Below, piece after piece: positions 47,115 through 63,755 of a stretch of DNA of 64,000 nucleotides (positions are counted from its first letter, which is position 1; each line of letters starts with the position of its first letter). Position numbers and translations under genes: made by a program. Source of the DNA: Promethearchaeota archaeon (GTDB lineage Archaea; Asgardarchaeota; Lokiarchaeia; Sigyniarchaeales; SOKP01). Below the pieces are notes generated by a model. The model ran no database searches and was not told the DNA's origin. It saw only the letters and a program-made list of their open reading frames with translations. The stretch is taken from the NCBI GenBank assembly GCA_048937405.1, contig JBHLNF010000008.1:32001-96000 (forward strand), read 5' to 3'.

Positions 47115-47345
47115 ATGAAGCCATTAATTATAAAAATGATTGGTTGGTTAATGTTAACATGTAATCTATTATTCGCTTTTGTAATAGGGATTACCATTCC
47201 ATTATTAGAATCAGAATATAATTATAATCTTGGAATTGTTATGATTCCATTACTTATCATTCTTAATTATATTATTGTAGATAGAATACATTATTATATA
47301 AAGCATTCAAAAGATAGGGAAGTCGAAATAGATGCAAAAAATTAA
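47115..47345 (+). CDS. Small 2-TM membrane protein coupled to the archaeosortase gene
   Basis: Two hydrophobic helices; 14-nt overlap with the next start. Confidence 0.6.
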   Translation: MKPLIIKMIGWLMLTCNLLFAFVIGITIPLLESEYNYNLGIVMIPLLIILNYIIVDRIHYYIKHSKDREVEIDAKN

Positions 47346-48249
47346 ACAATTGAAAGGGAGGATTAATTCATTAAGAAAAATAAAAAAACCTACAATTGAA
47401 TTTAATAATAATAAGTACATTTTTTCTATATGGTCTATACTCTTATTAGCTATTAGCGCACCTTTTTCTGCGTGGTTTATATTTTTATTCTTCGATTTGA
47501 GAATTAATTATTGGCTTCATGAGATAGTAGTGAAGCAAACTGTGTATCTCATGAATCTTTTTTTTAATATGGGGGCTGAAGCGCAATTTGCACCAAATGG
47601 AAAATATAACTGGAGATTTTTAATTCCAGGTCGAAGTCCAATATACTTTGAAACATTTTGTACTGGAATCCAGGCCATATGTATTTTTGCTGGAATTATC
47701 ATATTCACACCCCACAGTCAAGATCGAAATACAAAAGAAGATATTATTTGGAGGAAAACAAAAGCTCTTATTGTCTCATCAGTAATTTTTTATGTTGTTA
47801 ATATTATTAGAATGCTAATTCAAATTGATTTATATTATATTGGATATGATTGGAATGATATACATTTCTCAATAAGTGCAGCAAGTTCTTTTATTGCAGT
47901 AATAATTGTATTGCTAATGCACCGATGGATTCCAGAGTTCATTATCTCTATAATATATACAGGAACATTGGTAAGTGAGCCATTAAAAAAAAAGAGGAAA
48001 AAGTTAGTAAAGGAAATGGTGGAAAAAACAAATAAAGTAGATTTAAATTCAATGCGAAAAATACTAAGAATGGATAGAAAAACTTATTTAAAAGAAATGT
48101 CTGATTGGTCAAAAGATTTTGGCTATAATATTGACGGAGATTATTTAATAATTCCTTCTGAGAAAACCTTAAACTTTATAGAATTATTAATGCAAGAAAA
48201 ACCATTTCAGAAAGAAATAAAAGACTCTAGATCATCAATTGATAAATAA
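47332..48249 (+). CDS. Archaeosortase/exosortase family protein with C-terminal PCI/winged-helix-like domain
   Basis: Catalytic triad motifs FCTGIQ (Cys), VNIIRM (Arg), NDIH (His) in a multi-TM core; soluble C-tail MRKILRMD...DWSKDFGYNIDGDYL. Confidence 0.8.
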   Translation: MQKIKQLKGRINSLRKIKKPTIEFNNNKYIFSIWSILLLAISAPFSAWFIFLFFDLRINYWLHEIVVKQTVYLMNLFFNMGAEAQFAPNGKYNWRFLIPGRSPIYFETFCTGIQAICIFAGIIIFTPHSQDRNTKEDIIWRKTKALIVSSVIFYVVNIIRMLIQIDLYYIGYDWNDIHFSISAASSFIAVIIVLLMHRWIPEFIISIIYTGTLVSEPLKKKRKKLVKEMVEKTNKVDLNSMRKILRMDRKTYLKEMSDWSKDFGYNIDGDYLIIPSEKTLNFIELLMQEKPFQKEIKDSRSSIDK

Positions 48250-50362: not shown

Positions 50363-51265
50363 TTGCTGAATTTTGATAATGAACAAAAAGTAGTTCAAAT
50401 TGGAAATATTAAAATAGGTGGTCAACCAGGAGAAAATCCAATTGTTATGATTGGTACTGTTTTTTATGCAAAACATAAGGCATTATTAGATGAAAAAACA
50501 GGTGAAATTGATAAGAAATTAGTTGAAGAAGAATTAAATAATTATATAGAAATCATCGAAGAAACACAATTACAAGGTGTTATAGATGTAATTGGGGCAT
50601 ACCCAGAAGCATTGATAAAAGAATGTGAATTTATCGCAGATAATGTAGAATATCCCTTTTTAGTTGATGGACTAAATGATTCCTCAAGGATCCCTGCAAT
50701 GGAAGGATTACAGGAAATAGGATTACTAGATCGAGCTATTTTAAATAGTATTGATGAAAATACCACTGATGAAAATTTAGAGAAATTAAAACAAATTCGA
50801 GTAAAAAATGCAGTATTATTGACATTTGGAAATAAATATATATTTCCTCAGCAAAAGTTAAAATTTTTAAGAGAGATCTTAATACCCAAAACCGAGAAAG
50901 CAAATATCAAAAATATTATAGTTGATACCGCAGTTTTAGATTTACCATCAATTTCTATTAATTTTGAAACAGCAGGACTAATTAAAAAAGAATTAGGTTT
51001 ACCAACTGGATTTGCTCCTTCCAATGCAATTTATGGATGGAGTTATATTAAAAAATTTGGTGAAAATGCACGATGCGGCGCAATTGCTTCTATAATGACC
51101 TATTGTGCCACTGCTCCGAGTGATTTTATTTTATTTGGACCAATAAAATTTGCAAAGTGTACTATACCCGCTGTTGCTTTAATTTCCGGTGTAAACTCAT
51201 ATTATCAAAAAAGAGTAAAAAGACAGAAAATATCTGAACGTACTCCCTTAAAAACAATTTTTTAA
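50363..51265 (+). CDS. mtrH: MtrH-family pterin:corrinoid methyltransferase (stand-alone)
   Basis: F..EQKV..IG..KIGGQPGENP, GTVFY..H, LVDG, NSI, VDTAV, GLPTG..PSNA, LFGPI. Confidence 0.85.
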   Translation: MLNFDNEQKVVQIGNIKIGGQPGENPIVMIGTVFYAKHKALLDEKTGEIDKKLVEEELNNYIEIIEETQLQGVIDVIGAYPEALIKECEFIADNVEYPFLVDGLNDSSRIPAMEGLQEIGLLDRAILNSIDENTTDENLEKLKQIRVKNAVLLTFGNKYIFPQQKLKFLREILIPKTEKANIKNIIVDTAVLDLPSISINFETAGLIKKELGLPTGFAPSNAIYGWSYIKKFGENARCGAIASIMTYCATAPSDFILFGPIKFAKCTIPAVALISGVNSYYQKRVKRQKISERTPLKTIF

Positions 51266-52767
51266 CCAATATATCTTAAAAGTAAATCTTTTGTCTGCTT
51301 TAAAAAATCTGTTAATTGTTTGTTTATAATTTTTTTCTTCTTTTCATTATCAACTAGAAATAAAATAAACATATTATTTTCTTCAATTTGTATTTTTTTA
51401 AAAAGAATAACTGAATTTGCTACTTTAAATATTGCTTCTTCTTTCTGTAGAGCTTTAAATTTAGAAAAAATTTTAAATAACATTGTAAATTGTGGTGCTG
51501 TTACTTCAAATACATTCATAACTTCAGTTTTCGGTATTTTAATTAAATCCATTGCATCTGTGCTATAGAAATCCGCTAAAACTAATCCATCAGCACTTAA
51601 TAATAAAGTTAAATAAGAATTTGTTGCTAACGAAAAATTTTTTAAATTATGGTTAATCAAATCTCTATTCGGACTTAGTTTTGATATACCAGAGGAAAAT
51701 GCTCTTAAAACTGTAAAAATTTGGAAGATACTAGTAATATATATTTCTATTGTGTCATTGTTGGAGATTTCAGATAGTTTTTTTTTTATATACTCAATAT
51801 TTTCTTTAATTTCTCTTGAATTAATTATATCAGAATCTCCCTTGGATAAAACATATATAATTGGAGTATTTTGATTAAATTTATTTAATACGTTTTTTAA
51901 ATCTTGAAGATATTCAATACTTTCTTCAAATCTTTTGTTATTTTTAATATCGATAAAATAAAAAAGTAAATCTGCTTCATACAAATAAATTTCTGCTTTA
52001 TTTATATATTTCTTTCTAAATGTATATTGCCCTCCTAAATCCCATAAAAAAATTGTTGCTCCCAAAGCTTCTATAGATTTGATACTTGCTCCTGCTGTGG
52101 GTTTTAAGCCAATTAATTTACTATATTTCCGATCCACTGATAATAAAAAACTTGTTTTTCCACTATCATCCAACCCAGCAAATAAAATTTTCATTTTTCG
52201 ATGAGTAGTAATTGGAGTTGAAGGATTTCGCTCAATTTCTATTAAATTTTGTAAAAGTTTATGAAAAAAAGGTAAAGCCTCTTCACGTGGTGGATAATAC
52301 TTTACCATTTTTTTATCAAAAGTTTGGAAAAATTCATATACTATAGGTTTAATTCTATTCATATTATTGTATAAAAAGCTCCGACTATTTTCTTCTACTA
52401 ATATAGAAAATGCTGTAGCTACAGGGTGGATTGAATTTAATCTAATAAAATGGAAGTAAGTAAGAGATGTAGTCTTAAAATCAGGATAAGGTAAAATTGC
52501 GAAATATTGTAATTTTCTAAGATCCTTTTCTTGAGAAATTATTTTATCACTAATAAATAAACTTAAATTTTTTATTGAAATTTGAGTTATATCTCGCATA
52601 CTCAGAACAAGTTCCGTTTCCATCTTTGAGGATTTATCAATTTCTTTTAATTCTTTTTCAGTATAATGCTCTGGAAAGCAATATATAGGTGATGGACCGA
52701 GTTCTCCATATACACTTAAAACAAAACCTTTTAGAATTGAAGATTTGAATAATTCTTCCATTATCAT
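51262..52767 (-). CDS. uDENN/longin-like + Rag/Arf-like GTPase + roadblock-like fusion (no Arg-finger loop)
   Basis: VYGELGP...ILPYP; GLDDSGKT, PTAG, WDLGGQ, SKGD, TSIF; C-terminal LSPN...L..F......LL.ADGLVLA. Confidence 0.82.
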   Translation of the reverse strand: MIMEELFKSSILKGFVLSVYGELGPSPIYCFPEHYTEKELKEIDKSSKMETELVLSMRDITQISIKNLSLFISDKIISQEKDLRKLQYFAILPYPDFKTTSLTYFHFIRLNSIHPVATAFSILVEENSRSFLYNNMNRIKPIVYEFFQTFDKKMVKYYPPREEALPFFHKLLQNLIEIERNPSTPITTHRKMKILFAGLDDSGKTSFLLSVDRKYSKLIGLKPTAGASIKSIEALGATIFLWDLGGQYTFRKKYINKAEIYLYEADLLFYFIDIKNNKRFEESIEYLQDLKNVLNKFNQNTPIIYVLSKGDSDIINSREIKENIEYIKKKLSEISNNDTIEIYITSIFQIFTVLRAFSSGISKLSPNRDLINHNLKNFSLATNSYLTLLLSADGLVLADFYSTDAMDLIKIPKTEVMNVFEVTAPQFTMLFKIFSKFKALQKEEAIFKVANSVILFKKIQIEENNMFILFLVDNEKKKKIINKQLTDFLKQTKDLLLRYIG

Positions 52768-54580: not shown

Positions 54581-55543
54581 ATGTCTTTGAAAAAAATTGC
54601 TGAAAGCATAAGAAATAATCAATATATTATTGAGAAAATGGAAATAAGTCCCATTGTACAGTATATTGATAAAAATTCCTTTAAGAGTAATAAAATATTC
54701 AGTGATATTGGTGAAGATTCTGCTGCAATAAATTATAATGAGAAATTAATATTACTTACAACCGATCGAATTAGGACTTCATTTATTGAAAACTTTCCAT
54801 TTGGAGCTGGATTTAGTTCTGTTTTGGTAAGTGTAGATGACATATATGCATGTGGGGGTTCTCCATTAGCAGCAAGTATTATAATATCGGTTAAAGAATC
54901 TAATATCTGCAATAAACTATTGGAAGGAATTTGTGAAGGTTCACAGAAATTCCAAGTCCCAATCATAAGAGGTCATACAAATGTCAATAGTAAGTATTAT
55001 GAATTAAGTTCTACAATGATAGGTGAAATAAATAAAAGTGATTATATTTCTGCGGGAAATGCTCAGAAAGATGATAAAATTATTTTAGCCGTTGATTTTG
55101 ATGGTAAAATTGGGAAAGCTAGTAAATTTTATTATGATACAACAACATTTAAAGATTCTGAGACTGTATTAAAGAAAAGAAGATCTATGAATGTTTTAGC
55201 TAAAAAACAATTAGTTAATGCTTCTAAAGATGTTTCAAACGGAGGAATTTTTGGAACTTTATTACAATTAATAAAATATTCAAATGTAGGAGCAAATGTG
55301 AATATTAACAGAATTCTAATTCCACCAATATTAATCGAAAATGAATATGATTTAGAAACATATCTTCAGATGTATCTCACAACATCATTTGTTTTAACTG
55401 CTCCAAAAAATAACTGTAAAGAAGTAATTAAAATATTCAATGAATTTGGATTAGAAGCTCAAATCATAGGAGATATTATTAAAGAAAAGAATCTTTTGAA
55501 AATAAATGATGGAATAAATTCAATAGATGTAATACGATTTTAA
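54581..55543 (+). CDS. AIR-synthase/PurM-like superfamily protein (methanogenesis-marker-2/sll0787-like)
   Basis: GEDSAAI, AGFSSVLVSVDDIYACGGSP, VPIIRGHT, SKDVSNGGIFGT. Confidence 0.78.
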   Translation: MSLKKIAESIRNNQYIIEKMEISPIVQYIDKNSFKSNKIFSDIGEDSAAINYNEKLILLTTDRIRTSFIENFPFGAGFSSVLVSVDDIYACGGSPLAASIIISVKESNICNKLLEGICEGSQKFQVPIIRGHTNVNSKYYELSSTMIGEINKSDYISAGNAQKDDKIILAVDFDGKIGKASKFYYDTTTFKDSETVLKKRRSMNVLAKKQLVNASKDVSNGGIFGTLLQLIKYSNVGANVNINRILIPPILIENEYDLETYLQMYLTTSFVLTAPKNNCKEVIKIFNEFGLEAQIIGDIIKEKNLLKINDGINSIDVIRF

Positions 55544-56150: not shown

Positions 56151-56693
56151 ATGCGTAGGAAAATGATTTTTGATTTCAAAAAGGAATATAATGGTGTAAT
56201 ATCTGTTATTGGAGCAAGTGAAATTGATAAAGATACAAAAAAAAAAGCTGTTGAAATTGGTAAATTACTTGCTCAAAATAGATATATTGTTGCTTGTGGT
56301 GGATTATCCGGTGTAATGAAAGCTGTTTGCAAGGGAGCAAAAATTGAAAATGGATTAACAATTGGAATTATTCCCTACATTGAAAAATCAGCAGCAAATA
56401 AATACGTTGACATTGTTATTCCTTGCCCATTTTCTCAAGCAAGGAATATTGTTGTAGTTCTTAGCGGTGATGCATGTTTAGCAATTAGTGGTAAAGCAGG
56501 GACTTTATCAGAAATCTGTTTTGCATGGATTTATCAAAAGCCAATAGTAGCATTATCTGGTGTAAAGGGATGGTCATCAAAAATAGCCAATCAAAAATTA
56601 GATGATCGAAGATTTGATATAATCTATGGTGTTGAAACTCCTCAAGAAGCAATTTCTAAATTAATTGAATTATTAAATACTCCAAAAATTTAG
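56151..56693 (+). CDS. TIGR00725 / LOG-like (SLOG) Rossmann nucleotide-binding protein
   Basis: VIGA, CGGLSGVM.AVCKGA, TIGIIP, ARN.VVV, GTLSE. Confidence 0.88.
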   Translation: MRRKMIFDFKKEYNGVISVIGASEIDKDTKKKAVEIGKLLAQNRYIVACGGLSGVMKAVCKGAKIENGLTIGIIPYIEKSAANKYVDIVIPCPFSQARNIVVVLSGDACLAISGKAGTLSEICFAWIYQKPIVALSGVKGWSSKIANQKLDDRRFDIIYGVETPQEAISKLIELLNTPKI

Positions 56694-56851: not shown

Positions 56852-57823
56852 TTGGAAAAAAATCTTAAACAATCAATATTATACTTAAAGAAAGAGGAAC
56901 CAGAGTTACCTATATCAGTAAATAAGGTTTTATTCACTGGTCTTGATGATGCGGGTAAAACAAGTATTATTTTATCACTTCAAAGAGAGTTTTCTAAAAT
57001 AGCAATATTATCCCCCACACGAGGAGCACAAAGGAGAATATTTAATTTTTTGGGTAAGGAGATATCAGAATGGGATTTAGGAGGCCAATTAGCATATCGT
57101 ATTGCCTATTTAAAAAATCCAGGAAAATATTTTGAAGGTACTGAAATTGCTATATATGTAATTGATATACAAAATAAAGAAAGATTTTCTGAGGCTATTA
57201 GTTATTTTAAAGATGTCATAGATCAATTTCAAAAATTAGAAATAGAACCTCCAATATATGTATTCCTCCACAAATTCGACCCTGCTCTAAGAAGAAATGC
57301 CCAAAATGAGATGGAAACATTAGTTCTTGATTTAAAAGATAAACTAAAAGCAACTGAATATAAAAAAATATTTTACTATGAAACGTCCATTTATAATTTT
57401 GGCTCAATAATAGCAGCTATGTCAGAAATTCTTTTAGATTTGTATCCAAAATCTGAATTAATTGAAAAAACAATTCAAGAATTTGCTAAGAAAGTTGAAT
57501 CTGATGGAGTGGTTATTATCGATGATAATTCCCTCATAATTGGATCATATTATAAAGATGATGAAATTAGGCATCTCCTAAACGCCAGCTGTCCATTTTT
57601 TTTAACTCTTCATGATTCATTCCAATACACGAATCCTGCAGAAGATAAGTTTGGTGATCGGATGTTAATTCAGCGTTTTGGCAGAAACTTCATATTTAAA
57701 CAATTCGAATTAAAGAAAGACATGCCACCATATTATTTACTACTTGTGAAGGAAGAGCCTGTTTTTAATAAGGAAGATCTTGAATCTTTTATTAATTTAT
57801 TAGGGGAAATATTGTACAAATAA
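56852..57823 (+). CDS. Rag/Gtr-like GTPase with C-terminal roadblock-like domain
   Basis: GLDDAGKT, PTRG, WDLGGQ, Rag-type HKFD and TSIY; C-terminal IQEFA......VVIID.NSLIIG. Confidence 0.82.
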   Translation: MEKNLKQSILYLKKEEPELPISVNKVLFTGLDDAGKTSIILSLQREFSKIAILSPTRGAQRRIFNFLGKEISEWDLGGQLAYRIAYLKNPGKYFEGTEIAIYVIDIQNKERFSEAISYFKDVIDQFQKLEIEPPIYVFLHKFDPALRRNAQNEMETLVLDLKDKLKATEYKKIFYYETSIYNFGSIIAAMSEILLDLYPKSELIEKTIQEFAKKVESDGVVIIDDNSLIIGSYYKDDEIRHLLNASCPFFLTLHDSFQYTNPAEDKFGDRMLIQRFGRNFIFKQFELKKDMPPYYLLLVKEEPVFNKEDLESFINLLGEILYK

Positions 57824-58114: not shown

Positions 58115-59200
58115 TTGATTATATGCCAGAATTGCGGGACTACTAATAATGAGCTTAATACTCGTATTTGCAGGAATTGTGGTTCATTATTACCAATACC
58201 TTCTAAATCTAGTAGGGAAAGAGGAAAAAAAATAATTCTAGAAAAGAAAAAAAAGAAAAAGGAATCAAAAAAAGTTATAAAAGAAACTATAAATTCAGCA
58301 GAAAAATCAAAGGAAGATTTAATACTAGAAGAAATACCAAAAGAAATTGATAGTAATGAAAATCTAGGTGAAATGCATGAGATTCCTACAACATCGAAAG
58401 AAAAATTTATAGTACCAACTCATAAAGAAAAAGAACCTTCAGTTTTACAAGAAATTCCCGCACAGCCTTTTAAAGGTTCAATAATCAATTCCCAAGGTGG
58501 TATAACTAAACCTAAACCTATACCTAAACCTTTACCTATCCCCCCTTCTCGTTCTGAGGATGCAATCACAGATGCTTTCACAGAACTTAAAAGTTCTATT
58601 TTAGAAGAGCAAAATAAAGAACAAGAAATTTCTTTGTCTCCAATTCCTTCAGAGAATACTAAAATTGAAGAATCAATATTAAAACAAAAACAATTAGAAA
58701 AAGATATGACTGACGTTTTAAGTTTTCTTTCCAAAAAAATATCAGTTAAGAAATTAGATATTCCTAAAGCTAAGAAAGAAGAAAAAGAGGAATTAAAGGA
58801 GGAAATTCCACCATCTAGTATGAATGAAATTTTGAATAGATTATTAACTTTAGATTTAAACATTGAAGCATCGGCTATTATAAAATCGGATGGAACAATA
58901 TTAGCCTCAGCAACATCAAATAGAATCTCTGATTCTTTATTTGCAACAATAGGAGTGAACTTATCAATGATAGGAGCAGATATTACAGAAGGATTAAGTG
59001 CAGGTACTTTAAAAGCAATATCCTTAAAAGCAACTGAGGGTGTGTTAGATCTTGCACCCATTGATAAGTCAAATCCAAGTGTTAAGGATATGATTTTAAT
59101 TTTGTTTTCTCATTCTAAAGTAAAAAGTGGAATAATTTCATTTGCCATAAGCATTGTTAAAAAACAGATAAAAGAATATTTAGGTTTAAAAAAAGCATAA
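58115..59200 (+). CDS. Zn-ribbon + long disordered linker + roadblock/LC7 domain protein
   Basis: CQNCG...CRNCG; K/E/P-rich linker; IEASAIIKSDGTILAS...L.AG.L...G. Confidence 0.82.
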   Translation: MIICQNCGTTNNELNTRICRNCGSLLPIPSKSSRERGKKIILEKKKKKKESKKVIKETINSAEKSKEDLILEEIPKEIDSNENLGEMHEIPTTSKEKFIVPTHKEKEPSVLQEIPAQPFKGSIINSQGGITKPKPIPKPLPIPPSRSEDAITDAFTELKSSILEEQNKEQEISLSPIPSENTKIEESILKQKQLEKDMTDVLSFLSKKISVKKLDIPKAKKEEKEELKEEIPPSSMNEILNRLLTLDLNIEASAIIKSDGTILASATSNRISDSLFATIGVNLSMIGADITEGLSAGTLKAISLKATEGVLDLAPIDKSNPSVKDMILILFSHSKVKSGIISFAISIVKKQIKEYLGLKKA

Positions 59201-59235: not shown

Positions 59236-60030
59236 TCAAATCAGCCTTTTTTGTATATTAATTTTATTAATTTTAATTGTATAAAAATAAGATATATTAT
59301 TTTGTAATTCTTGCAAAAATGAATTCATTTCATAAATTGAAACGAGAGGAATTTGGTTTTCATTAATTCTGAAACTATTATTTTCTAGAGTTAACATTAA
59401 TGGAATTAAAATAAATGGCAATTGTCTTCTCAAATTGATTCTATTCCCTAGCAATGCTTGAACTAACTTTGAGAAGATTTCAGGATTTTTTTTTAGTGCT
59501 ATGACTCGGCGTAGTTGTAAATTAGCAGCTTTGTTTATCAAACTAAATGAATCCTTACGTTTCCATTGTTTAGCATCGATTAATAAAACAAATTTTGAAT
59601 AGATACCAATAACATCAATTTCATAACGCTTTTGGGAAGTTTTCAATTTAAAATTTGATTTATCAGAAAATCTAAAATTCTTTTTAGTAATATAACTATT
59701 TCTTGAAAGAATTTGTTCCACTAAGATTTCAAATCCATTATAATTTAATATTTCAGTAATTTGTTTTATATCAAATTCTAAAATTTTGATGCTCTCAATA
59801 ATAAATAAGATTTTATTGACAACGATGTATTCTTGATAATTTCCTTTCTGAATAGATATGAAATCAAAATTCCCTATAAACGCTGTTAACTCATAATAAT
59901 TGAAATGATTAAAGAAAGGAATTTCTGATTGTGTACACCAGATATCAATAACATTTATATCAGTATTTTGCAAAATATGAAATATTTCTATATAGAATTG
60001 CTTTAATGATAAAAGAGAAAAACATTTCAT
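59236..60030 (-). CDS. PD-(D/E)xK nuclease-fold protein (NERD/Mrr-like)
   Basis: FE.LV..IL....Y, YEIDVIG....VLLIDAKQW. Confidence 0.7.
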   Translation of the reverse strand: MKCFSLLSLKQFYIEIFHILQNTDINVIDIWCTQSEIPFFNHFNYYELTAFIGNFDFISIQKGNYQEYIVVNKILFIIESIKILEFDIKQITEILNYNGFEILVEQILSRNSYITKKNFRFSDKSNFKLKTSQKRYEIDVIGIYSKFVLLIDAKQWKRKDSFSLINKAANLQLRRVIALKKNPEIFSKLVQALLGNRINLRRQLPFILIPLMLTLENNSFRINENQIPLVSIYEMNSFLQELQNNISYFYTIKINKINIQKRLI

Positions 60031-60322: not shown

Positions 60323-62131
60323 ATGGATTTATTACCCAAAGTATTTAGAACTGAAGGAAATATAGCTGAATTTGATCCAAACAAAATTTTTGAAAGTATT
60401 ATAAAAGAGACTAACATAAATGATGCAGATGCAAAAAATATAACAGAATCAGTAGTAAGGAGAATAATTAGTTCGGGCATTAAATTTCTTTCCGGACCGC
60501 ATATAAGAGAAATAGTTTGTTCAATCCTTTCAGAACAACATTTTGAAGAAGAACGTAAATTGTACACTAGGATAGGAATGCCTTTAATGGATTATGAAGC
60601 ATTACTTGAGAAAAAATCAGGAATAAGACTAAATAAGTGGATTAATCCAGAAAAAATTAATCATTGGTCTGCAAACCAAATAGCTGAAGAGTATACTCAC
60701 TTAAGAATTCTTAGTAATGAAGAATCTAAAGCTCATTTGTATGGTGATATTCATATTAATGGACTAAGTTATTTTGATCTTAGACCATTCACTCAAATAT
60801 GGGATCCTCGATTAATTTTATATGGTGGATTTCCTCCCATTGACAATCTTAATGGCTTTATTAAACAAGAACCACCAAAAAAACTCAGTTCAATCCTTTC
60901 TCAACTATTCAAATGGCTTGAAACTGTTATGAATGAATTTTATGGAAATCAAGATCTCAATCTAATTTCTCTTTTTTTAGCTCCATATGTAACTAGCATA
61001 TCTGAAGAAAAAATAAAGAAAGAAATTCGAAAATTTATCTATGGGATAAATTTATTGCCAATTATTAAAGGACGTGAAATTTTATCAACAAGAATTACTT
61101 CCAGTGCTTCGATCCCTGAAAGCTTTTCAAAACTTATTGCTCTAAATCCCAATGAAAGCATAAATCGTAATTATTCAGATTACAATAGCGATTGTTTAAA
61201 TATTCTTAAGGCATTTATTTTTGTTTTTAAGGAAATTAGTAAAAATCGTATTAATTTTCCATCTCTTAACTTTCAAATCTTACTAGATGATAACTCTATT
61301 GATAATCTAGAACGAAATTATAGTGAATTCTGGGATGATATTAAAACGTATAAAGGTAGCACTTCAATCGATTTTTGTTTTAATTCGTCTATTAATAGAG
61401 ATATTAAAAAATTAGCTCAGAATGATATATATAACGTTGGTATACTTCAGAATATAAGTCTAAATCTACCTAGATATGCCTATATTAGTCAAGATGAAAC
61501 AAAATTTTTTGAATTATTACGTGAGAAAGTAATGCTAAGTTCTGAGGTTTTATTAAAAAAATTTCATATGATTGAAAAAAGATTAAAATTAAAACATTTA
61601 CCTTGTTGTTGTGGCATTATTGATAAAAAGCCATTGTTTAGGTTGGAAAATCAAGACCTTTCATTTAGTTTAGTTGGGTTGAACGAGTCTATCAAAATCT
61701 TAACAAATTATGAACTTCATGAACATATAGATGCAATTAACTTTGGTTTAAGGATATTAAATGAATTGAATAATCTATGTATAGAACTAACTGAAGCAGT
61801 TGGAAAAAATTATGCAATAAGTGAGAATAGTTCATTAAAAGCTATAAATAGATTTACTAGATTAGATCGAAAACATTTTTCAAGTTTATTAAAATATTTA
61901 ACGGAAGATTTAACTTATCAATATTCAAATTCAATTCACTTTCGGAAAGACATTGAGGTTGAATTATTCAAACGTGTGGAGGTTCAAGGCAATTTCCATC
62001 GTTTCATTAAAAATGGAGCAATTGAAAATATTTCATTGTATGATCTTGAATTAAATGCTTTATCTATTCATGAATTCATCAATATAATTAGTAAAAAATC
62101 AAGAATTTCAAGCATAAATTTTTCTTCTTAA
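60323..62131 (+). CDS. ATP-cone + class III ribonucleotide reductase (NrdD)-like protein, predicted inactive
   Basis: ATP cone (V.RTEG...FDP.KI...IREIV), YTRIGMP, AHL.GDIHI, G.LQ.ISLNLPR.A, LVGLNE, YSNS.H; lacks catalytic Cys, Zn ribbon and RxxGY. Confidence 0.8.
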   Translation: MDLLPKVFRTEGNIAEFDPNKIFESIIKETNINDADAKNITESVVRRIISSGIKFLSGPHIREIVCSILSEQHFEEERKLYTRIGMPLMDYEALLEKKSGIRLNKWINPEKINHWSANQIAEEYTHLRILSNEESKAHLYGDIHINGLSYFDLRPFTQIWDPRLILYGGFPPIDNLNGFIKQEPPKKLSSILSQLFKWLETVMNEFYGNQDLNLISLFLAPYVTSISEEKIKKEIRKFIYGINLLPIIKGREILSTRITSSASIPESFSKLIALNPNESINRNYSDYNSDCLNILKAFIFVFKEISKNRINFPSLNFQILLDDNSIDNLERNYSEFWDDIKTYKGSTSIDFCFNSSINRDIKKLAQNDIYNVGILQNISLNLPRYAYISQDETKFFELLREKVMLSSEVLLKKFHMIEKRLKLKHLPCCCGIIDKKPLFRLENQDLSFSLVGLNESIKILTNYELHEHIDAINFGLRILNELNNLCIELTEAVGKNYAISENSSLKAINRFTRLDRKHFSSLLKYLTEDLTYQYSNSIHFRKDIEVELFKRVEVQGNFHRFIKNGAIENISLYDLELNALSIHEFINIISKKSRISSINFSS

Positions 62132-62291: not shown

Positions 62292-63755
62292 TTGACAAAA
62301 TCAAAAGATAAACAAAATCAAGAAAAATTGCCTGAGGAAAAAACCACAGGGCCTAAATCAGATATTATTAAGGTTATTGTTTTAAGTATTTTTGATGAGA
62401 ATGGTCCTACTCCAAGAATATATTGGCCTCAGGATTTAGAAGATCAAGCAGGACTATTGATTGCTATGAAAACCATTAGTTTATTAATGGGTGATGCTAC
62501 ATATCAAGATGGGACGGATGTTGAAGGAATCAATTATTTTGGAATATTACCTTTTCCAGATTTAAAATTAAATGGTTTAACTTATTTTTTCTTAATTCCC
62601 GATGATACTGCTCGCGGAAAAGCCTTAGCGGCAACAATAACTATTTTAATTAATGAAGAAAATAAAGTGTTTTTCTATGAAAACATGAAATATCTTAGAA
62701 TTATAATGGATAAAGCTGCTACTCAAATTCAGAACAATCAGCAATTTAGTGAAAGAGAAATCATTATGGAAAAATTCCGAGAGGAAATCTTTGAATTTGC
62801 CAGTGAAGTAAAAGATCCTTATTCTACTAAAAGACACATTAAAGTTCTTCTTGCAGGATTAGATAAAGCGGGTAAGACAAGTTTTATGTATGGGATTAGG
62901 AGGAAATATTCCGAAATTATTAAATCTATGCCAACAAAAGGCGTTGAAAGATCTGAAGAAAATATCTTTGAAGAACAGAATACTGCTATTACGATTTGGG
63001 ATTTAGGTGGACAAAAACAATATCGGGAAAGATATCTTGAACAAAGCAAAATGTATTTGTATAATATTGATCTTATGTTCTTCTTTATCGATATTCAAGA
63101 TGTGGAAAGAATAGATGAAGCATTAAACTTATTCAAAAAGATTTTAAAAACAATAATAGAATTAGATGAATTCCCTCCTATTGTTGTTTGCTTAAATAAA
63201 TTTGACCCAGACCTTAAGGGTTCAAAAGAAATTTTTAAAAATTTAGAAATAATTGCTGATGCAATTAAAGAAAATTCAGACAAATTCTTTATTAAAATTT
63301 TTCAGACTAGTATTTTTGATCACTGGAGTCTAATTTCAGCCTATTCTTTTGGATTGTCTCAATTAAGTCCCAATCGAGAATTATTCAGAAATCAATTGAA
63401 AAAATTTGCAAAAAAAACAAATTCAGATGCTATATTACTATTAAATGAAAATGGGATTATTTTATCAAATTATTCTAAATCGGAAATTTCTGGAAAAGTA
63501 TTCGAAGTGAGTGCCCCTCACTTTCAATCACTTTACAAGAATTTTAAAGAATTTAAATTGTTAGAACAAGATTTTATCGTTTCATCTGGGATTTCTGATA
63601 AGTCTAAAAAAGTAATCTTTAAAAGAATAACCGTTGAAAAATATAATTTGTATTTACTTTTATTCTTAGAAAAATCACTTGAAATTGATAAAATAGAAAA
63701 AAATTTACCTGATTTTTCAAAAAACTTGATTGATTTAATCCATACTTATATTTAG
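62292..63755 (+). CDS. uDENN/longin-like (FLCN/SMCR8-type Arg loop) + Rag/Arf-like GTPase + roadblock-like fusion
   Basis: IFDENGP...ILPFP...FFLIPDDTARGK; GLDKAGKT, PTKG, WDLGGQ, NKFD, TSIFDH..L..A.S.....LSPN. Confidence 0.85.
   Translation: MTKSKDKQNQEKLPEEKTTGPKSDIIKVIVLSIFDENGPTPRIYWPQDLEDQAGLLIAMKTISLLMGDATYQDGTDVEGINYFGILPFPDLKLNGLTYFFLIPDDTARGKALAATITILINEENKVFFYENMKYLRIIMDKAATQIQNNQQFSEREIIMEKFREEIFEFASEVKDPYSTKRHIKVLLAGLDKAGKTSFMYGIRRKYSEIIKSMPTKGVERSEENIFEEQNTAITIWDLGGQKQYRERYLEQSKMYLYNIDLMFFFIDIQDVERIDEALNLFKKILKTIIELDEFPPIVVCLNKFDPDLKGSKEIFKNLEIIADAIKENSDKFFIKIFQTSIFDHWSLISAYSFGLSQLSPNRELFRNQLKKFAKKTNSDAILLLNENGIILSNYSKSEISGKVFEVSAPHFQSLYKNFKEFKLLEQDFIVSSGISDKSKKVIFKRITVEKYNLYLLLFLEKSLEIDKIEKNLPDFSKNLIDLIHTYI

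Follow-up and report, generated by a model that had tools for sequence, protein, structure and literature searches.

An arginine-less longin, Rag-like GTPase and roadblock protein of Lokiarchaeia, best read as the C9orf72-like member of an ancient asymmetric pair

A 501-residue protein encoded in a 64,000-nucleotide stretch of DNA from a Promethearchaeota archaeon of the class Lokiarchaeia (assembly GCA_048937405.1, contig JBHLNF010000008.1, positions 32001 to 96000; this whole stretch is referred to as the window) belongs to a conserved Rag-like module and is best read as the arginine-less member, comparable to C9orf72, of an asymmetric pair of ancient origin. Its gene, which we call A (51262-52767, minus strand), codes in a single chain for a longin domain, a Rag-like GTPase (G) domain and a roadblock domain. 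Gene B (62292-63755, plus strand) encodes a 487-residue paralogue which bears an arginine finger, and gene C (56852-57823, plus strand), which was identified by phmmer and synteny and lies between the two, encodes a 323-residue Rag-like GTPase-roadblock protein without a longin domain. The four families of the order are denoted f1 to f4, with f1 being the family of the window.

Eukaryotic nutrient signalling uses two lopsided pairs of paralogues, the Rag GTPase heterodimers and the longin GTPase-activating protein (GAP) heterodimers, in which there is a single arginine finger. The question at stake is the origin of these asymmetric pairs, of which A and B look like an archaeal forerunner. We tentatively propose that A is a Rag-like GTP-binding protein, devoid of the arginine, which joins B in an asymmetric complex as the subunit without catalytic function, and heterodimerisation of A with B, taken by itself, is put forward with the same reserve.

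Domain architecture and the arginine finger loop

The first-pass annotation of the window, which was made from the sequence alone, described A and B as having the same three-part architecture, and this was borne out. The two proteins aligned over their full length by BLASTP (32% identity over residues 8-500, E 8e-84) and their N-terminal domains matched one another by HHalign with a probability of 99.9% (E 2.5e-32). AlphaFold2 (AF2) models, which were built on alignments of 149-150 rows, gave a predicted local distance difference test score (pLDDT) of 80.5 and a predicted template modelling score (pTM) of 0.81 for A, and values of 74.1 and 0.73 respectively for B. Structural neighbours of the models were found with Foldseek and VIA-align. 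Residues 7-186 of A resembled the Lokiarchaeal longin domain 8yqg_B (Z 16.8, root-mean-square deviation 2.4, 145 residues aligned), with the secondary structure elements of the longin in the order beta-beta-alpha-beta-beta-beta-alpha-alpha when assigned by DSSP. The 8yqg longin was also matched by the N-terminus of B (Z 18.7), for which the Lst4/FNIP longin (Z 12.8) and C9orf72-SMCR8 (Z 12.5) appeared lower in the ranking. Residues 191-496 of A, comprising the G and roadblock domains, aligned with LokiRagO (8yl2_A, Z 22.3, 25% identity), RagC (6nzd_G, Z 20.0) and Gtr2 (8fw5_E, Z 19.9). Both proteins passed the Pfam model PF04670 (Gtr1_RagA), A doing so with 73.4 bits over residues 193-407 against a cut-off of 22. 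No C-terminal DENN module of the kind present in longin GAPs was found in A, where the Rag-like G and roadblock domains stand after the longin instead.

The longin core of A covers residues 10-135 (52363-52740, minus strand, as for all features of A), as delimited by VIA-align, HHalign and sequence alignments, and contains the GP motif (Gly24-Pro25, 52693-52698), invariant in 44/44 family genomes and in the f3 orthologues, followed by a clade-specific insert of approximately 21 residues (aa 33-57). A helical linker (aa 136-188, 52204-52362; helices at 136-153 and 161-180 by DSSP of the AF2 model) leads from the longin to the G domain (aa 189-365, 51673-52203), which was placed from its motif positions and conservation. 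The C-terminal roadblock domain (aa 366-501, 51265-51672; Z of 20-22 by VIA-align) has the DSSP order alpha-beta-beta-alpha-beta-beta-beta-alpha and carries the helix FEVTAPQF...FK.L that is shared with B. Most of the motifs which the first-pass annotation had listed as common to the two proteins were present (GP, ILPYPD, LTYF, LSPNR and FEVTAPQF), while IK..SL was reduced to K..SL, A reading IKNLSL and B reading MKTISL. The open reading frame of A is intact, and more than 119 orthologue clusters were found in the database at 59-86% identity, the set recovered for B being similar. The orthologues of A have a nearly fixed length of 499-501 residues and begin with MEEL, and A therefore likely starts at Met3.

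Compared with the catalytic subunits FLCN, SMCR8 and NPRL2, A has the longin fold and the GP motif but not the conserved arginine finger after strand 4. In B, which was characterized from alignments, sub-threshold Pfam Folliculin matches and structure matches, the GP motif (Gly38-Pro39) is accompanied by the finger loop DDTARG (aa 104-109, Arg108 codon at 62613-62615), and Ala107-Arg108-Gly109 was observed in 44/44 family genomes. The loop of A reads YFHFIRLNSIHPVATAFSILV and holds no Arg-Gly; its residues HFIRLNSIHPV (aa 106-116, 52420-52452) are the counterpart of the D..ARG finger loop of B in the A-B alignment. Across the 44 genomes the GP motif was found in every copy of both proteins, whereas the A loop was variable (identity 0.39), with Arg109, two residues upstream of the finger position, in just 12/44 genomes and Arg-Gly in 0/44. 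In the joint alignment B conforms to FFLIPd.kARG.ALAaT, with A-R-G conserved to at least 90%, and A is marked by the variable loop and by the insert of about 21 residues after GP.

The lack of a DxxxRG motif, which had been pointed out for the window copy of A, extends to approximately 119 database orthologues and to 44/44 family genomes, and no A orthologue with Arg-Gly was found among them. By these alignments the missing Arg loop is a trait of the whole A orthologous group and not of the window copy. An RG loop kept by most orthologues, which the first-pass annotation had named as a ground for rejecting the idea, is clearly not what was observed. B-type proteins in all four families of the order have kept D..ARG.A.A, and the A-type proteins of f3 have no D..ARG loop and share the post-GP insert with A of f1. 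At the level of sequence, an ancient and stable asymmetry between an arginine-bearing and an arginine-less protein (Arg+/Arg-) is supported.

A sub-threshold match to the Pfam Folliculin model was observed for 25/25 B N-termini (best E 3e-05) and for 0/25 A N-termini. The weak match of B covers residues 96-156 and includes the DDTARG loop, and the equivalence of B Arg108 with FLCN Arg164 is based on these sub-threshold matches across the loop rather than on superposition. When the N-terminal profiles of A and B were searched against PDB sequences nothing was obtained below E 0.1, so that the link to folliculin was not demonstrable via PDB sequences. An ESM Atlas feature search with residues 1-188 of A returned scores of 0.85 or less only, including one cluster with NPR2 on 19% of its members, which we regard as a lead only.

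A profile of the B longin searched against 1.84 billion proteins recovered 173 clusters (50% identity), in which several architectures are represented; among matches in the size class of longin-GTPase-roadblock (LGR) proteins 11 had GP with Arg-Gly and 11 had GP without the arginine. The family of longins with GP and arginine to which B belongs comprises at least 173 clusters (P0244-P0393 were examined), and its members of approximately 340-355 and 280-290 residues (longin at residues 110-250) mostly retain Arg-Gly. In these archaea, it seems, the B-type longin is also joined to different input or output domains. Two B-type proteins of f4 (G279, L012:2398-3852; G278, L013:2539-3993) have an insert after GP at the same place as the A insert, and this insert may be an ancestral feature that the remaining B lineages no longer have. 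The G279 protein also has HKSE as its G4 motif (Asp to Glu).

Asgard fusions of longin domains to Rag GTPases have been reported previously (Liu et al., bioRxiv 10.1101/2020.10.19.343400), and LGR Rag-like GTPases were described in 'Ca. Prometheoarchaeum syntrophicum' MK-D1 by Tran et al. 2024 (PMC10933270). In the supplement of the latter paper WP_147663355.1 is labelled LGR and WP_147663364.1 is labelled XGR, for a protein with an unknown N-terminal domain. The printed switch regions of WP_147663355.1 match B, and those of WP_147663364.1 match A of the MK-D1-type genome in f3 (G143), which indicates that the N-terminus of an A orthologue was not recognized as a longin in that study. The MK-D1 LGR proteins have the same longin-GTPase-roadblock order in one chain and belong to the same families, and A as well as B has an orthologue in G143. 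Neither the Arg+/Arg- asymmetry nor the pair nor the gene cluster is mentioned there, whereas here the N-terminus of A is found to be a longin homologous to that of B. Even if the pairing of A with B should fail, the published catalogue is corrected in that the 'unknown' N-terminal domain of the MK-D1 orthologue is a longin.

The GP motif was defined in a study (Traffic 2025, PMC12290439) which found it in FLCN, NPRL2, SMCR8 and the Arg-less C9orf72 and reported it absent from FNIP2 and NPRL3. The same study described Asgard 'FLCN/SMCR8-type' longins with GP and an arginine finger, left open which GTPases they serve and mentioned no fusion. B has both of these motifs and A has GP, and with respect to the question left open, the longin is here covalently tied to a Rag-like GTPase and occurs as an Arg+/Arg- pair. 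In eukaryotes the three longin GAPs, like the Rag GTPases, are all heterodimers of paralogues with one catalytic side, and C9orf72 has GP without the arginine (PMC12290439). A is like C9orf72 of the C9orf72-SMCR8 complex in that GP is kept and the arginine finger is missing, with the partner, SMCR8 or here B, having both (PMC12290439). More loosely, A is like FNIP of FLCN-FNIP and NPRL3 of NPRL2-NPRL3 as the Arg-less longin of a paralogue pair, the pairing of A with B being predicted. Unlike the eukaryotic longin GAP subunits A lacks DENN, has a Rag-like G domain and roadblock domain of its own and has no detectable sequence similarity to them (0/25 Folliculin matches, no PDB sequence match).

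Likeness to RagA/B-RagC/D and to Gtr1-Gtr2 is seen in the Gtr1_RagA match, in the position of a roadblock domain C-terminal to the G domain, in the Z of approximately 20 to RagC and Gtr2, and in that A and B are two ancient paralogues which have been kept together. A differs from the Rags in its additional N-terminal longin and in its G4 motif, [S/T]KxD; no Ragulator or target of rapamycin (TOR) context is known for it and the heterodimer is a prediction. The best structural match to the G and roadblock domains of A, the homotetrameric RagA-like LokiRagO (8yl2), and the monomeric LokiRagM (8zla/9m28) are both unlike A in having no longin. Our literature search found no paper on LokiRagO or LokiRagM and none on an Arg+/Arg- pair. 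What is new here is this pair, the architecture and the GP and arginine motifs having already been published.

Linkage, distribution and pairing of A and B

Wherever A and B were found on one contig in f1 the gene order was fixed (54/54 loci). A on the minus strand is followed divergently by an aminoimidazole ribonucleotide (AIR)-synthase-like gene (plus), a SLOG/TIGR00725 gene (plus), C (plus), a Zn-ribbon gene (plus), a NERD-like gene (minus), usually an NrdD-like gene (plus) and B (plus). The spacing between A and B in these loci was 5.6-15.6 kb with a median of 8.0 kb, and is approximately 9.5 kb in the window. A compact core of B, NERD-like, C, SLOG and AIRS-like genes, with A divergent from them, was observed in f3 (G141-G143, including the MK-D1-type G143), and G138 of the same family has this core order spread over 17 kb. 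In G135, also of f3, B lies 80 kb away from the A-AIRS-SLOG part of the cluster. An independent phyletic distribution, which had been named as a sign against the pair, was thus not what was found, the two genes being linked in all of the f1 loci and in a compact form in f3.

The relatives carrying orthologues of A or B are metagenome-assembled genomes (MAGs) named at source as Promethearchaeota or Lokiarchaeia, and full-length matches to A and B in whole-genome searches were confined to the order. A census of 134 f1 genomes gave approximately 107 with both genes, 10 with A only, 8 with B only and 9 with neither. The loci of 12 of the singletons were inspected (8 'A only', 4 'B only'). In 8/8 of the 'A only' loci the contig ended before the slot of B, and these genomes were therefore rejected as a sign that A is independent; no verified genome was found to have A without B. 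The four 'B only' loci comprised two contig ends, one A fragment at a contig edge and one real loss. The latter is in G167, a 99% complete genome from which A has been cleanly deleted (slot between the AIRS-like and MtrH genes, L016:18417-19135); no remnant of A was found there, and B, C and the other genes of the cluster have been kept. In addition, B was found and A was not in the four f4 genomes and the single f2 genome searched, which are 63-88% complete. Because B occurs without A in G167 and in the f4 (4/4) and f2 genomes the pairing is not obligate for B, and the word 'obligate' in the first-pass annotation has to be dropped.

In a tree rooted on C, the A clade (f1 and f3) was supported at 96% and the B clade (f1-f4) at 97% by the Shimodaira-Hasegawa-like approximate likelihood ratio test (SH-aLRT). 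Provided that C is the correct root, the duplication would therefore be older than the families. A broader tree, built from representatives at 50% identity, again placed the Arg-less LGR proteins in one clade (98%) and showed B as paraphyletic, which makes the root of the A/B tree uncertain.

Rate covariation was determined over 44 genomes with a fixed topology, branch lengths for each gene and residuals against the other genes of the cluster. A-B gave 0.45, rank 2 of 21 pairs, compared with 0.21 for B-C and a median of approximately 0.15 for the other pairs, and the ranking was stable to filtering. Prediction of the full-length A+B complex with alignments was scored as 'weak support', with an interface score (ipSAE) of 0.44 (runs of 0.44, 0.48 and 0.43), where the highest of three controls scored 0.00, a contact agreement of at least 78% and a partner pLDDT of at least 78. 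When this method was calibrated, 58/80 solved complexes passed, as did 2/110 mismatched pairs; scores of 0.60 or less were seen in only 7 of the 80 solved complexes but in both of the passing mismatches, so that a pass in this range is more often wrong than right unless the pair was likely beforehand. Co-occurrence, linkage and the difference from the controls speak for the asymmetric heterodimer that had been proposed at first pass, but binding itself is weakly supported by the score and C equals B in covariation.

In the proposed assembly A and B would be joined roadblock to roadblock as in RagA-RagC, and probably longin to longin as in SMCR8-C9orf72, bringing together two G domains and one arginine finger, Arg108 of B. 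With one finger in the assembly GTP hydrolysis could be stimulated in only one site at a time, and we propose that the two sites would in this way reach opposite nucleotide states, as is typical of Rag dimers. A would depend on B and not the reverse, with B alone presumably forming a homodimer. A bolder proposal, which we consider rather doubtful, is that A and B, possibly together with C and the Zn-ribbon-roadblock protein, form an asymmetric Rag-like assembly with a built-in single-finger longin GAP. One two-chain archaeal state would then combine the Rag heterodimer with the GAP heterodimers (FLCN-FNIP, SMCR8-C9orf72, NPRL2-NPRL3) that were later split in eukaryotes, and the one-finger asymmetry and opposite nucleotide loading of Rag dimers would be older than eukaryogenesis. 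These proteins would offer a small, soluble, prokaryotic four-protein system in which to study the origin of GAP asymmetry, the action of the finger in cis or in trans and the logic of Rag-type dimers, and for C a close homologue, LokiRagO (8yl2_A; phmmer E 1.9e-85 over residues 10-319 of C), already has a crystal structure.

A number of observations weigh against a heterodimer of A and B, and several of them would be accommodated if A were an independent, subfunctionalised paralogue which forms a homodimer or homo-oligomer of its own and uses its Arg-less longin as a scaffold or guanine nucleotide exchange factor (GEF)-like platform for its own G domain, sharing a pathway with B without contacting it. 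The solved Lokiarchaeal relatives are homo-oligomeric (LokiRagO 8yl2 is a homotetramer and the 8yqg longin a homodimer), and in the supplement of Tran et al. (PMC10933270) the longin-GTPases of MK-D1 were modelled with AF2 as homodimers with ordinary roadblock and longin interfaces, and an operonic pair of GTPase-roadblock (GR) proteins as a heterodimer. The helix FEV.AP.F is common to A and B and therefore fits a hetero- or a homodimer alike, homodimers being sterically plausible, and B, as described above, can live without A. The low A+B score does not tell a heterodimer from a homodimer, and solved Rag dimers known to the predictor may have contributed to it. The longin and roadblock domains of A are also looser than those of B (mean identity 0.55 and 0.59 compared with 0.76 and 0.74), the A-B covariation lies in terminal branches only (internal branches 0.11-0.27) against a background of five genes, and conservation of the neighbourhood as such may account for some of the synteny, given that the NrdD-like gene in the cluster is of a housekeeping type. 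An independent A is harder to reconcile with the lack of any verified genome with A but not B, with a cluster in fixed linkage across two families, with A-B rate covariation above background, and with the retention of GP and clean loss of the arginine, which mirror the non-catalytic partner C9orf72 (PMC12290439). We regard it as somewhat unlikely.

Less probable still, and in our judgement unlikely, is that the direct partner of A is C and/or the Zn-ribbon-roadblock protein and not, or not only, B, in a Rag-Ragulator-like hetero-oligomer of four in which the arginine of B acts on A or C. As candidate partners of A, taken one by one, C and the Zn-ribbon-roadblock protein are equally as good as B. 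C lies between A and B in all 54 f1 loci and beside B in the compact clusters of f3, and its homologue LokiRagO is tetrameric, so higher-order assemblies exist in the family. Rate covariation of A with C (0.48) was as high as that with B, which ties A to both B and C and not to B alone; it was 0.48-0.62 across settings and the top or second pair in most of them, with B-C only at approximately 0.2, but the A-C signal is likewise confined to terminal branches. The Zn-ribbon protein (58115-59200, plus strand) has a Zn ribbon and, from the evidence of orthologues, a probable C-terminal roadblock/LC7 domain. Its orthologue in G149 matched the Pfam model Robl_LC7 with 25.3 bits against a cut-off of 23 and that in G260 with 14.4 bits, but the window protein gave no Pfam Robl_LC7 match and no HHalign match above 1% to the roadblock or longin domains of A, B and C. 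An assembly of four must also accommodate G135, where B is separated from A-AIRS-SLOG by 80 kb.

Conservation of the G domain of A

The G motifs of A were located as G1 GLDDSGKT (198-205), switch I Thr224, G3 DLGGQ (243-247), G4 SKGD (308-311) and G5 TSIF (345-348). G1 to G5 are all conserved to at least 90% across orthologues, and LSPNR, GP and the roadblock helix show little or no variation. Over the 44 family genomes the mean pairwise identity of the G domain was 0.69 for A and 0.70 for B, and fell to 0.24 in the post-GP insert of A (longin core 0.55). A is apparently under purifying selection and not decaying, and from these motifs it is predicted to be a working GTP switch.

The first-pass annotation had singled out the G4 motif of A as altered to SKGD. 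The motif is indeed present and does not match the Rag-type HKxD, but it does not mark a disabled site, Lys and Asp having been retained. By clade, A has SKGD in f1 and TK[VF]D in f3, always keeping Lys and Asp, and in B the motif is NKFD within the f1 crown and HKxD outside it. SKGD as a mark of an inactive or xanthine-type site was rejected, given that [S/T]KxD is fixed in the clade with both residues kept. Working small GTPases such as Rac1 (TKLD) also have [S/T]KxD.

In two A orthologues of f3, those of the MK-D1-type G143 (L001:13755-15281) and of G135 (L006:2422-3939), G3 reads DIPGK, the catalytic Gln being replaced by Lys, and the close relatives G141, G142 and G133 retain DIPGQ. In certain lineages the G domain of A may no longer be capable of intrinsic hydrolysis.

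The idea that A is a decaying duplicate, a pseudo-GTPase or pseudo-longin without a function of its own, could appeal to the variable loop and insert, to the DIPGK orthologues and to the loss of A in G167 and its absence from the f4 and f2 genomes searched, but it is effectively refuted by conservation, the frame being intact and of near-constant length in the more than 119 database clusters and in approximately 116 family genomes, the G domain being as conserved as that of B, G1-G5, GP, LSPNR and the roadblock helix being near-invariant and the A clade being as old as the order.

Genes surrounding A and B

The window is AT-rich (GC approximately 0.25-0.34) and is located on contig 26 of a host genome of 4.47 Mb in 29 contigs. 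The AIR-synthase-like gene of the PurM superfamily (54581-55543, plus strand; Pfam AIRS/AIRS_C and synteny) is the divergent neighbour of A in every locus. It matched the NCBIfam models for methanogenesis marker 2 and sll0787-like proteins, in both cases below cut-off. Beyond it is the SLOG/LOG-like gene of the TIGR00725 family (56151-56693, plus strand), with a Pfam LDcluster4 match of 2.8e-40 and a TIGR00725 score of 126.3 bits against a cut-off of 106.9. The AIRS-like and SLOG genes stay divergent neighbours of A even in G135, where B has moved, and their rate covariation was 0.45. Their products may provide the GTPase module with a nucleotide-derived ligand, or detect one for it.

The Zn-ribbon gene is conserved within f1, and its product has a long low-complexity linker in addition to the C-terminal domain. 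It is possible that this protein is an MglB- or Ragulator-like fourth roadblock partner. Together with A, B and C it brings to four the number of proteins in the cluster for which a roadblock domain is known or probable. The NERD-like gene (59236-60030, minus strand) was identified by a weak Pfam NERD match and by synteny in f1 and f3.

Directly upstream of B is the NrdD-like (class III ribonucleotide reductase-like) gene (60323-62131, plus strand; Pfam NRDD 7.3e-57 and synteny), which was found in most f1 loci and is absent from the compact f3 clusters. The product of 602 residues has a weak ATP-cone and is far under the NCBIfam equivalog cut-offs, and it may not be a true class III ribonucleotide reductase but a divergent member of the glycyl-radical enzymes. 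Breaks in MAG contigs are frequent at this gene.

On its 3' side A lies tail to tail with a gene for an MtrH-family methyltransferase subunit (50363-51265), the two overlapping by four bases, and is divergent from the genes on its other side. An archaeosortase H gene (ArtH, 318 bits, 47332-48249) is found further along on the MtrH side. The position of ArtH and MtrH is conserved in f1, and an ArtH homologue adjoins A in G138, G142 and G143 of f3. Two complete A...B clusters were observed in G207 (C13, C63), with 68% and 60% identity to A of the window, and are probably due to the mixing of genomes in the bin (6% contamination) and not to a duplication.

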